Shown here in pieces: positions 1 through 10,205 of a stretch of 10,205 nucleotides of DNA. The DNA is from a virus (taxonomy: Duplodnaviria > Heunggongvirae > Uroviricota > Caudoviricetes). Below the pieces are notes generated by a model. It ran no database searches. It was not told the origin of the DNA and saw only the letters and a program-made list of their open reading frames with translations. Numbering within the stretch: position 1 is the stretch's first letter; every line of letters begins with the position of its first letter. The stretch is from the IMG/VR virus record IMGVR_UViG_2724679140_000003, positions 1-10,205 of that record. One strand, written 5' to 3'. The position numbers and the translations under genes were made by a program.

Positions 1-345
1 GGCGGTGCGCATAGTCTCGTCACGATAGATGATCGGGGATTCAGTAACATTCACGCCGGAAGTGAACTCAAACAGGGTTCTGGCGTCGTTCTCGTACTGT
101 TTTCCCCAGGCCAGCGCCTTAGCGTTAACTTCCGGAGCCACACCGGTGCAAACCTCGGCAAGTAGGGTGTGGAAGTAGGACATTTTCATGTCAGGCCATT
201 TCTTTCCGGAGCGGGGTTTTGCTATCACGTTGTGAACTTCTGAAGCTGTGATGACGCCGAGCCGTAATTTGTGCCACGCATCATCCCCCTGCACGATAGC
301 TCTCACGTCGATCCCAGTACGCTGCAGGATAATGTTCGGTGTCAT
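1..345 (-). CDS. exo: Lambda-type exonuclease (Red alpha), N-terminal part; gene continues past the window edge
   Basis: Reverse-strand translation from ATG at 345..343 reads [115 protein letters not shown], which matches the lambda Exo N-terminus as I recall it. About 115 codons are present, open to position 1. The ATG overlaps the in-frame bet stop (ATGA) as in lambda. Confidence 0.9.
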
Positions 346-412
346 ATTGCCACCTTCTGCTCTGCGGCTTTCTGTTTCAGGAATCCAAGAGCTTTCACTG
401 CTTCGGCCTGTT

Positions 413-1126
413 TCAGTTCTGACAATGCATGAATGTCGCGGCGAAATATCTGGGAACAGAGCGGCAATAAGTCGTCATCCCATGTTTTATCCGGGCGATC
501 AGCAGAGTGTTAATCTCCTGCATGGTTTCATCGTTAACCGGAGTGATGTCGCGTTCCGGCTGATGTTCTGCAGTGCATGCGGTATTTTCGACAATGCGCT
601 CGGCTTCATCCTTGTCATAGATACCAGCAAATCCGAAGGCCAGACGGGCACACTGAATCATGGCTTTATGCCGTAACATCCGTTTGGGATGCGACTGCCA
701 TGGTCCGATGATTTCTTTGCCTTCTCGGGTTTTGAATGGTTCGCGACGGCACTCATCCATCCACTCGGTAACGCAGATCGGATGATTACGGTCCTTGCGG
801 TAAATCCGGCATGTACATGATTCATTGTCCTGCTCAAAGTCCATGCCATCAAACTGCTGGTTTTCATTTATGATGCGGGACCAGCCATCAACGCCCACCA
901 CCGGAACAATGCCGTTCTGCTTATCAGGGAAGGCGTAAATCTCTTTCGTCCACGGATTAAGTCCGTACTGGTTGGCGACGATCAGCAGCGCGATGAATTG
1001 CGCATCGCTGGCATTACCTTTAAATGCCGTCTGGCGAAGAGTGGCGATCAGTTCCTGCGGGTCGACAGAATCCATGCCGACGCGTTCAGCCAGCTTCCCG
1101 GCCAGTGTTGCAAGTGCTGTACTCAT
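413..1126 (-). CDS. bet: Red beta (Bet) single-strand annealing protein, C-terminus altered by an apparent 1-bp deletion (likely pseudogene or truncated variant)
   Basis: The 237-aa ORF starts [26 protein letters not shown] and tracks recalled lambda Bet almost residue for residue up to [12 protein letters not shown], then reads [26 protein letters not shown] and stops. The other frame from about 503 down to 342 still encodes a Bet-like tail ([20 protein letters not shown]...[11 protein letters not shown]) ending in TGA that overlaps the exo ATG. Start ATG at 1126..1124 is preceded by GAGG. Confidence 0.85.
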
Positions 1127-1131
1127 TCGTT

Positions 1132-1431
1132 TTATACCTCTGAATCAATATCAACCTGGTGATGAGCAATGGTTTCAACCATGTACCGGATGTGCTCCGC
1201 CACGCGTTCTTGAAATTCAACATCGTCATCAAATGCGCGACTGATTGCCTGTTTGCTGGCACCGTGGCGTTGCAAATGGTCGATGCAGAGCGATTCAAAC
1301 AGGTGCTGGGGCAGACCTTTTTCCAGGTCGTCCGCCAGCTCCGTTTCTTTTTCTTCGCGAACGATTTGCTGGTAGTGGCGTGACCATGCCTGCTCTTCAA
1401 TGCGATCAAAAATTGGGCATGTACTCATCAT
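1132..1431 (-). CDS. gam: Gam-like RecBCD inhibitor (short GamS-type form, 99 aa)
   Basis: Translation [99 protein letters not shown] matches recalled lambda Gam closely from the GamS start onward. Sits directly upstream of bet on the same strand. GGGG-rich SD before the ATG. Confidence 0.9.
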
Positions 1432-3379
1432 CCGTCACCCCAAAATTTTCAAGTTTGTTTGCAATCATCATTGCAATACCCGGAATTAATGGCGCTGAGG
1501 CTATACCCGCAGGATTTGCACATAAACCGTAAACCGCTGCAATCACCACTTGTCTTTTCCAGTCGAGTTTTTCTAATGATGAAGCTGCTGCTTCGCCAGT
1601 TTCATCACTGCAATCGCGATGCGGATCGCTGCCATCGTTCTCCTTGTGCGGATGTTCAGCACCTTCCATTTCCTCCAGACCTTTTTCCTGATATTCATTC
1701 TGATTTTCTTCATTAAAGGTTTTCTGATACGTTGCGTCGCCCATCACCGCACCACAGTCAGGGCAGTTATCCCCGCCAGTCTGACCGCAGGCATTGCAGA
1801 CTATTTCCGGTTCCTGTTGCACTACTGGCTCAGGTTGTTTCGCATCCGGGCTGATTTTTTCCGTTTCTGGCTGGTTCTGGTACACAGAATCGCGAGTCTG
1901 GATCCCCTTAACCCATTTCGGATCGTTCGGGTCGCTAATTCCGTCAACAAATTCACCACGTGATGCAGCAAGCAATTTATCGGCATCGACAGGATTTTTT
2001 GATGGAATGTTTTTCCGGGCTTCATGGAGTTCTGCCCGCTTTTTCTGGTATTCCGCTTCAACAGGGTTTACCTGTGACTGAGCATCCAGCGGCTGCGTGT
2101 TCTGATGATGTTCAGCTGCATCCGGTTCCACTGTTTCAGCCGTTGCCTGTTCATGTGCCATTGCGCCAGATGGTTGCGGTTTTTCTTCATCATCCTGTTT
2201 TTCTTCTTCTGTTACACGCTGCGGCATCGGGGCAGAGGAGCGACCGCAGGCAATATCCACGATTTCCGGATCAGGGTTGGCATGATCGGTTTCAGTCAGT
2301 ACTTTGTTCAGATATTCAGTGACGTGCGCGGGGATGACCTCGATCCCAATTGGTGCTTCTTTTACGGACGCAACCACGATGGCGCGGGAATAATCCAGCC
2401 CGCCAGGCATGGTGATGAATTTGTCGCGGAAAACAGAAAAGGGCGGTTTATTTTCAGCGATAATTTCCTCAATGCGTTTAGCGTGTGCCGGATGAAGGTT
2501 ATAGATGTCCACGTCCATTGAACGGGCCAGTACGCCAGTGGCTACATCGCGCGCCAGTGACGTCAGATCGTGGACGAAACCTTTGCCGCGATCGGTGAGG
2601 TTCCCGCCGCCAGCATTAGCACCGGAAGCCGTGCGGGTGATACGTGAAACACGATTTCCTTTCATCCACTCTTTTGTCAGCAGACCGCGATCGGTGTAGT
2701 CAGTGCCCAGGTATGCTTCGAAAAAAGCAGTCATCAGCCCCAGGCTTGAATTGCCTGGATTAGGGAAAACTCTGTCAGTATCACGCACCAGTTTGTGGAG
2801 ATCGCGAATTTCCAGCGGATCGAGCAGGCTGGTTTTGTGGGAAACAGCCAGGGCAGTAACAGCTGGTAGTTCTTCAGCTCGTGCAATGTGTAATGCCTGG
2901 AGTTCGTCGCGTGAAACGTGCGTTACCGGTTTTTCGCTGCCGTGTTGAGCAAGCCAGCGAATGGGCAGCTCCTGACCGGAAATCGGGAGTAGCATATTCT
3001 CCTCAATCTCCGTCATGTCTTCGCCATTAACATTGGTATTGTCAGTGCTGGCTGGTTTGTCCTGCGCAGAGGATGAGGGCGCGATAAATACCATTGTGAT
3101 GCCATCTTCCCCGCCTTTTTCGTAACGGTTGCAGAATTCCGTATCAAATACGCCTTCTGGTGGAAGGTCATCAACAACGGGCAAATTGACGCGAACAGGT
3201 TTTTTAAAGTCATCTTCATCGTAGCCAGCATCGTCAATCGCAACAGCACCACGGGAGATGGCAATGGATAATTTTTTCGCTTCAGCCCAGTAGAAACCGC
3301 CTTTAATACCGAGACGTTTTCTTACTTTGTCATTTTTTGCTTCGTAATACAGTGAGTAAACTTGTTTATCGGTGCTCAT
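1406..3379 (-). CDS. Large hypothetical protein (657 aa): acidic low-complexity segments, CxxC-x7-CxxC zinc knuckle, hydrophobic C-terminal segment; function unknown
   Basis: Uninterrupted 1974-nt ORF. ATG at 3379..3377 preceded by TGAGG about 9 nt upstream. Zinc knuckle [16 protein letters not shown] at about residues 528-543. Hydrophobic stretch [30 protein letters not shown] near the C-terminus. The 3' end overlaps the gam start by 26 nt. No Walker A or other catalytic motif recognised by eye. Plus-strand ORFs across this span are antisense and spurious. Confidence 0.85.
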
Positions 3380-8065: not shown

Positions 8066-8812
8066 ATGAAAAATATTGCGACAGGAGGCGTTCTGGAGCG
8101 TATCCGCAGACTGACCCCACCACATGTAACCGCCCCATTCAGAACGGTTGCGGAGTGGCGCGAGTGGCAACTTGCTGAAGGCCAGAAACGTAGTGAGGAG
8201 ATCAACCGCCTGAATCGCCAGTTGCGGGTGGAAAAAATTCTGAATCGCTCAGGCATCCAGCCGTTGCACCGTAAATGCTCGTTTGCGAATTACCAGGTGC
8301 AGAACGACGGCCAGCGATACGCGTTAAGCCAGGCGAAATCCATCGCCGATGAACTGATGACCGGGTGTACAAATTTTGCGTTCAGCGGAAAACCTGGTAC
8401 CGGGAAGAATCACTTAGCGGCAGCTATCGGGAATCGCCTGCTGAAAGACGGTCAGACAGTGATTGTGGTTACCGTGGCTGATGTTATGAGTGCTCTACAC
8501 GCCAGCTATGACGACGGGCAATCAGGCGAAAAATTTTTGCGGGAACTGTGCCAAGTGGATCTGCTGGTTCTTGATGAAATTGGCATTCAGCGCGAGACAA
8601 AAAACGAGCAGGTGGTGCTGCACCAGATTGTTGATCGCCGGACAGCGTCGATGTGCAGCGTGGGGATGCTGACAAACCTGAACTATGAGGCCATGAAAAC
8701 ATTGCTCGGCGAGAGGATTATAGATCGCATGACCATGAACGGCGGGCGATGGGTGAATTTTAATTGGGAGAGCTGGCGTCCGAATGTCGTCCAGCCAGGA
8801 ATTGCGAAGTGA
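8066..8812 (+). CDS. DnaC-like helicase loader / IstB-like AAA+ ATPase (YdaV-like replication protein, 248 aa)
   Basis: Walker [16 protein letters not shown] and Walker B LLVLDEIG. Recognisable DnaC-family layout. ATG at 8066 with GGGGG SD. Directly downstream of the O-like gene. Confidence 0.9.
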
Positions 8813-8834: not shown

Positions 8835-8984
8835 ATGGAAACCGTTTTTGATGCACTGAAAGCAATGGGAAAAGCCACGTCGGTAGAACTGGCTGCGCGA
8901 CTTGATATCAGTCGTGAAGAAGTGCTGAACGAGCTGTGGGAACTGAAAAAGGCTGGATTCGTTGATAAAAGCGCGTACACCTGA
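8835..8984 (+). CDS. Small winged-helix-like protein (49 aa)
   Basis: Strong SD GGGAGG 8 nt before ATG at 8835. Translation [49 protein letters not shown] looks like an HTH. Ends with TGA at 8982-8984, in frame with the next ORF. Confidence 0.6.
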
Positions 8985-8987
8985 CGT

Positions 8988-9596
8988 GTGGCCGATAACA
9001 ACGTTCAGCAGGAACATCCAGTGCCGGAAGAACAGCCGGAAGAAATCGCCACGGCAACAGTAGCGAAAATCTCAGAGTGCGATTTAACCGCGACGATTGA
9101 ACAACGCGGACCACAAACGGCGGATGAACTGGCTACGCTGTTCGGTACCACATCCCGCAAAGTTGCTTCAACGCTGGCAATGGCAATCAGCAAAGGACGC
9201 CTGATTCGCGTAAATCAGAACGGTAAATTTCGTTACTGCATGCCGGGCGGTAATTTACCAGCAGAGCCGAAAGCTGCATCGGTAGCGGAAACTGATGGTA
9301 AAGCCTTTCCTCAGCCTGCATGTGTTGTTTTACCAGTACAGGAGGCTGCAATACAGGAAGAAATTAAAACAGAAACTGTGGCGGACATTGTGCAGCCGCT
9401 GCCATCGTTCACTGAAACGCGAGCAGATGACCTGGTTTTACCATCGCTGCATATGGCAAACCGCGAACTGCGTCGGGCGAAAAGTCATGTCCAGAAGTGG
9501 GAGCGAGTCTGCGCCGCGCTGCGTGAGCTGAACAAGCACCAGGATATTGTCCGTCAGATTGTCGATTCCTCCAGTCGTATTGTGTCGGAAAAGTGA
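8988..9596 (+). CDS. Hypothetical protein (202 aa) with a second HTH-like segment; GTG start, or a readthrough extension of the preceding ORF
   Basis: Long ORF in the same frame as 8835..8984. First codon GTG at 8988 with no convincing SD. Contains [32 protein letters not shown], which resembles the HTH of the upstream 49-aa ORF. Confidence 0.7.
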
Positions 9597-10035: not shown

Positions 10036-10205
10036 GCGGGATTGACTACCAGGATTTGGCTGCTGCCAACGCTTTCCTGGCGGATGTGCGGGCAGGGGCG
10101 TTTAACGACCTTTGCGCGGCGTTTGTCAGGCACGAAAAAATTGCAGGACTGGGTGATGGCGACACTGTGACGCTTAAGGAAGCGACTGATGCGCTGCTGC
10201 ACTGT
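10032..10205 (+). CDS. Hypothetical protein, 5' part only (runs off window)
   Basis: GTG at 10032 overlaps the preceding stop (GTGA). Open frame to the window end reading MSGIDYQDLAAANAFLADVRAGAFNDLCAAFVRHEKIAGLGDGDTVTLKEATDALLHC. No SD assessed; short and partial. Confidence 0.35.
   Translation, partial: MSGIDYQDLAAANAFLADVRAGAFNDLCAAFVRHEKIAGLGDGDTVTLKEATDALLHC

Follow-up and report, generated by a model that had tools for sequence, protein, structure and literature searches.

Is the short Bet protein encoded by this Rac-related prophage a natural form of the recombinase, or has one base been lost from bet, either from the DNA of the strain or from its deposited sequence alone? The window, the whole 10,205-bp stretch of DNA analysed here, is the complete draft contig LRBX01000036.1 (GCA_001596865.1) of E. 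coli 'atEc'. The original prediction held that bet carries a 1-bp deletion, around 503, which replaces the C-terminal end of the protein. We examined the lesion itself, the prophage that carries it, its distribution among relatives, its expected effect on Bet and exo, and the readings that could account for it.

A single missing base shifts the bet reading frame

Alignment of the window to NZ_CP054665.1 placed the lesion at 492/493 rather than around 503. The loss of one base relative to lambda-type bet was borne out, since all other copies that were examined have that base. On the minus strand, positions 496..480 read GCCCGGATAAAACATGG in the window and GCCCTGGATAAAACATGG in every relative, and the codons GCC-CGG-ATA stand in the window where all relatives have GCC-CTG-GAT.

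Translation through this point gives a 237-residue product (Table 1), in which the native part closes with L-I-A at residue 211. Its tail is unrelated to Bet, as had been proposed, but is 26 residues long rather than 25, and the stop codon given as 413 occupies 415..413. Residues 212-261 of Bet are lost from the product, in line with the expected loss of about 50 C-terminal residues. The old frame is unaltered for 49 codons (345..491) and then reaches the TGA that overlaps the exo ATG, so the claim that it still encodes a Bet-like C-terminus down to this overlap holds on translation. The ATGA stop-start overlap with exo is broken, again as foreseen, with bet translation now ending 67 nt upstream of the exo ATG.

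Restoring the one base in the window yields a 261-aa Bet identical to WP_063119826.1, a protein annotated in the CP054665.1 genome and in mouse strain M8. The restored 786-nt gene is identical to eight independent copies. Chance is not at issue. The restored protein presumably differs from lambda Bet at 10 positions.

Table 1. Features of the window discussed in the text, with coordinates, strand and the observation on which each rests.
Feature	Coordinates	Strand	Basis or detail
exo, lambda exonuclease / YqaJ family, first 115 codons, cut by contig end	1..345	-	Pfam YqaJ PF09588, E=2.6e-12; ATG 345..343
Displaced, undamaged Bet coding sequence	342..491	-	Residues 213-261 (helices 2 and 3 of the C-terminal three-helix bundle); original TGA 344..342
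Shine-Dalgarno-like AAGGTGG of exo	356..350	-	Sequence
Frameshifted bet ORF, 237 aa	413..1126	-	Bet residues 1-211 and 26-aa out-of-frame tail; stop TGA 415..413
Foreign tail, 26 out-of-frame codons created by the frameshift	416..493	-	Translation
Deletion site	491..494		CCGG in window versus CCAGG (+) / CCTGG (-) in all relatives; base absent between 492 and 493
gam, 98 aa, host-nuclease inhibitor; upstream neighbour of bet in the same operon	1132..1428	-	Pfam Gam PF06064, E=1.2e-57
RecE-family ORF, 657 aa, upstream of gam	1406..3379	-	Pfam PF06630 (Exonuc_VIII N-terminal region only), residues 52-189
Only substitution relative to CP054665.1	8747	+	C versus A, CGA/AGA, synonymous, Arg228 of the ydaV-like IstB/DnaA-type ATPase gene (8066..8812)
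DUF1627 gene with in-frame stop	8835..9596; stop 8982..8984	+	TGG to stop at codon 50

The prophage and its nearest relative

The window is closest to NZ_CP054665.1 (L001), the genome of E. coli IGC_EcoliInv_1.1, which carries a Rac-like prophage at ttcA; identity to this prophage is 99.98% over all 10,205 bases. In a global alignment the two sequences show only two differences, the 1-nt gap in bet and a single substitution at 8747. Like the window, the CP054665.1 prophage has the gene order RecE-family ORF, gam, bet, exo, ralR, xisR, intR and an internal stop in DUF1627; unlike the window, it has an intact bet of 261 aa. In complete relatives ralR, xisR and intR lie beyond gam-bet-exo at ttcA, and exo is present at its full 226 aa.

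The prophage appears to be of the 'KingRac' type. KingRac, a Rac-related phage from mouse E. coli, has been described as active and transferable, with particle formation and lysogeny of new hosts (Frazao et al. 2019, PMC6731689). CP054665 appears to represent KingRac judging from its strain name, host ('G2 mouse') and location; the indexed literature holds no paper that ties this accession to KingRac.

The element is a mosaic Rac/lambda prophage. The 657-aa ORF upstream of gam is annotated as 'RecE family exodeoxyribonuclease' in relatives, found no match among solved structures and apparently is without the RecE nuclease domain. The ORF shares 23 nt with the start of gam, and the genes that come after it are lambda-type gam-bet-exo instead of recT, a layout that is also found in several mouse and human E. 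coli assemblies. At the site of the DUF1627 stop, relative L003 has a Trp codon, and in CP054665.1 the gene is annotated with the same 'internal stop'. DUF1627 looks like a genuine inherited pseudogene of the prophage lineage to which the window belongs.

The deleted allele is private to one draft contig

We scanned 5,426 complete E. coli genomes with a 71-nt query that spans the deletion site. The query located 4,069 places in 3,179 of these genomes, and the best matches were all 71/72 with one gap; none of the 4,069 places matched it at 99% identity or above, so none has the deleted form. A 22-mer carrying the deletion had no match in IMG/VR, in the metagenome collection or in the GTDB species-representative genomes, while the intact 23-mer, which served as a positive control, matched 85 stretches in the metagenome collection and at least 120 in the viral one. 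An exact-protein look-up of the 237-aa product returned LRBX01000036.1 alone. Searching for the identical Gam protein in NCBI, ENA and the Logan assemblies gave eight listed places, all eight of which have a 261-aa Bet overlapping exo.

The reading frame of the window bet is thus disrupted relative to all close homologues, as in a frameshift pseudogene. The original prediction had named a short form carried consistently by close relatives as a point that would tell against it; all of them have the 261-aa form. We reject a natural short form of Bet on the basis of the E. coli scan, the lack of matches to the deleted pattern in the collections and the full-length Bet beside every identical Gam. 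There is likewise no sign of a lesion inherited among related isolates, with no other genome, metagenome or viral contig in the collections scanned carrying the bet deletion.

A 1,432-nt gam-bet-exo' stretch is 100% identical in eight assemblies (L210-L217) and in the window after one-base restoration. The displaced 3' region of bet carries no substitutions relative to the eight independent copies, so the deletion is either very recent or artefactual, which supports the earlier suggestion of a recent mutation or a sequencing error. On these comparisons, the bet deletion is a single private event on a widespread, otherwise invariant allele. One change of this sort, with no other difference around it, is as compatible with an artefact as with a recent mutation.

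Predicted consequences for Bet and exo

The frameshifted protein matches Pfam RecT (PF03837, E=7.8e-33) over residues 24-181 and the Red-beta structure PDB 7UJL (residues 1-178) with E=5.5e-120; by both matches, the N-terminal RecT/Red-beta DNA-binding and annealing domain is present. Against the C-terminal-domain chains (8TFU, 6M9K) the match reaches residue 214 only, and the annotated frame does not encode an in-frame C-terminal three-helix bundle (residues ~195-261) with its Exo-binding pocket. The out-of-frame segment matches the remainder of these Red-beta C-terminal-domain chains with E=2e-24.

The C-terminal domain of Red-beta is a three-helix bundle, in which helix E of lambda Exo enters a pocket between Red-beta helices 2 and 3 (L223, I227, F249, L250), and the domain is also needed for SSB binding (Caldwell et al. 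2019, PMC6393309). As cited in that paper, Smith & Bell 2016 deleted the last 11 residues (Red-beta 1-250) and found that the protein no longer bound Exo and supported neither ssDNA nor dsDNA recombination in vivo. The window shares with lambda Bet, a RecT/Red-beta family annealing protein, the N-terminal domain, the gam-bet-exo order, a displaced C-terminus that matches the Red-beta chains and, once restored, a length of 261 aa. Unlike lambda Bet, the deposited Bet continues after residue 211 with 26 unrelated residues, and lacks both the stop-start overlap with exo and, in the C-terminal domain, helices 2 and 3. The allele resembles the engineered Red-beta 1-250 and 1-177 (Smith & Bell 2016, as cited in PMC6393309) in that the integrity of the C-terminal domain is lost, and the N-terminal domain of Red-beta alone still forms annealing complexes (7UJL). 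What sets it apart from the engineered truncations is its origin in a frameshift, whether natural or artefactual, and the 26 foreign residues at its end.

We propose that the product would still comprise the N-terminal DNA-binding/annealing domain (1-177/188), joined through the linker to helix 1 of the C-terminal domain, but would lose helices 2 and 3, and with them the lambda-Exo-binding pocket and a part required for SSB binding. It is predicted to bind and anneal DNA in vitro and to be dead for Red recombination in vivo. Since Red-beta 1-250 already loses Exo binding and recombination, and the window allele loses everything after residue 211, the 237-aa allele, if real, is expected to be null for recombination while still able to bind DNA.

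The gene order gam-bet-exo is present, and ATGA is present in the DNA but is not read as the bet stop. We expect that exo would lose its ATGA coupling to bet and keep its own Shine-Dalgarno. The RNA around the exo start (320..440, minus strand) folds no better than shuffled sequences (z=-0.05). Given this Shine-Dalgarno-like element and the lack of unusual RNA structure, the polar effect on exo is probably modest at most.

Another reading is that the split gene could still function, with full-length Bet made by -1 slippage on A-AAA after the deletion, or with its halves expressed separately via a TTG ORF at 342..467. We regard such a functional arrangement as very improbable. Were tRNA-Lys to slip by -1 on ATA-AAA-C, ribosomes would be back in the native frame, and their 261-aa product would depart from Bet at residues 212-213 alone; however, the site is an A-AAA-C run only, rather than a canonical X-XXY-YYZ heptamer, and the downstream 83 nt fold worse than shuffled controls (z=+1.61). 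Similarly, the TTG ORF would encode 41 aa spanning most of the lost C-terminus, but no Shine-Dalgarno precedes its TTG. The arrangement is also absent from the relatives, all of which encode the 261 aa in a single frame. A programmed frameshift was rejected on these counts, namely conservation, heptamer and downstream structure. Nothing here supports the very improbable reading that the allele, if the deletion is real, would be leaky rather than null, with occasional -1 slippage of tRNA-Lys on ATA-AAA-C allowing low Red recombination and some bet-exo coupling.

Mutation or consensus error

The E. coli strain atEc (LRBX00000000), an atypical commensal, was isolated from CD-1 mice (Nat Commun 2016, PMC5482719). 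Illumina MiSeq sequencing gave 6.5 million reads (total 1.72 Gb), which were assembled with GS Assembler 2.6 and CLC; contigs were then joined by hand, using PCR-derived long reads together with primer-walking reads from an ABI 3730XL (PMC5482719). The MiSeq data correspond to ~340x for a ~5-Mb genome. Consensus indels outside homopolymers are rare in Illumina data. Thus, the very deep Illumina coverage and the position of the deleted base outside any homopolymer favour a real mutation, as does the remaining contig, which shows no other indel and one synonymous substitution relative to the complete genome CP054665.1. On balance, we lean towards a real loss-of-function mutation, of very recent date and private to the strain, by which a dispensable prophage gene of atEc became a pseudogene in the ordinary way; the deletion stands in the deposited sequence, and we infer its presence in atEc DNA.

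Decay of this kind is normal for this element, given the shared DUF1627 nonsense mutation and the state of bet elsewhere: about 16 of 186 fully covered bet loci, these being loci fetched with the intact pattern, are disrupted by frameshifts, nonsense codons or N-terminal deletions. As to how the base may have been lost, the coding strand lacks a T, which in relatives stands in CCC-T-GG. Bebenek and Kunkel reportedly described -1 frameshifts that arise by misincorporation and then realignment in 1990, and a single base with a run of C on one side and a run of G on the other would by inference be a classic context for them.

The same facts have to be weighed for an assembly or consensus error, under which the bet of the strain is intact (261 aa) and the base is missing from the draft alone. 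We consider this possible, if rather doubtful. The deleted allele is unique among thousands of copies, and eight identical copies from independent sources differ from it by the one base alone. Only 492 nt, less than two read lengths, separate the site from a contig end that falls within exo, a gene typically repeated among lambdoid prophages. The pipeline was a hybrid one, with GS Assembler 2.6 run on Illumina reads, CLC and manual merging with PCR-derived Sanger reads, and each of these steps could have let in a local error in the consensus. Flow-space consensus errors or Sanger compression errors are conceivable at a base between a C-run and a G-run. However, depth of coverage and the rarity of non-homopolymer indels tell against an error here, real bet disruptions are common, and a contig whose other 10.2 kb hold no further indel and one synonymous substitution is not error-prone.

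The deleted base is also the central W of a CCWGG motif (CCWGG to CCGG), as would be expected of a nanopore-type systematic basecalling error at a Dcm-methylated site. The restored window has 36 CCWGG sites, and a random 1-nt deletion would strike one of them with p ~0.0035, a value calculated post hoc. The platform was Illumina MiSeq with ABI 3730XL, not nanopore, and the other 35 CCWGG sites are the same as in the reference CP054665.1. We therefore rejected this explanation, to which we give next to no credence.

If the deletion is real, as we favour, the KingRac-type prophage of atEc would be Red-recombination deficient and would offer a small natural case of prophage decay, consistent with published Red-beta domain-function data. 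An artefact would mean that a false pseudogene stands in the GenBank and RefSeq record. The observation is correct but ordinary and known in kind: a private inactivating frameshift, or a consensus or assembly error, in a well-understood gene, and not a new biological feature. With either outcome, knowledge of Bet, lambda Red and Rac-type prophages is unchanged and the relevance is mostly to annotation hygiene.

Contig ends and variation at other bet loci

At window position 1 the contig breaks within exo, at codon 115, and at position 10205 it breaks within a small hypothetical gene adjoining DUF977. These two breaks suggest that the contig ends may be repeat boundaries common to other atEc prophages.

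The eight assemblies that share the gam-bet-exo' stretch come from different sources, including one metagenome and two Logan read-set assemblies. Their flanks differ: the integrase of L214 is another gene, encoding 358 aa instead of 411 aa, and upstream in L212 lies kilR, in the position that a Rha-type regulator occupies at the other places. Together with the identity of the stretch in all eight assemblies, these differing flanks indicate that the gam-bet-exo' module spreads as a recently exchanged cassette.

Among the loci fetched with the intact pattern, two other forms of bet were seen. In eight remnants (L021, L037, L057, L064, L065, L127, L154 and L181) unrelated sequence replaces everything upstream of residue ~130-199, so C-terminal fragments of Bet persist in degraded prophages. 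In L063, L100, L130 and L136, Bet is an in-frame variant of 259 aa with a shorter linker (ENTASESQPERD).
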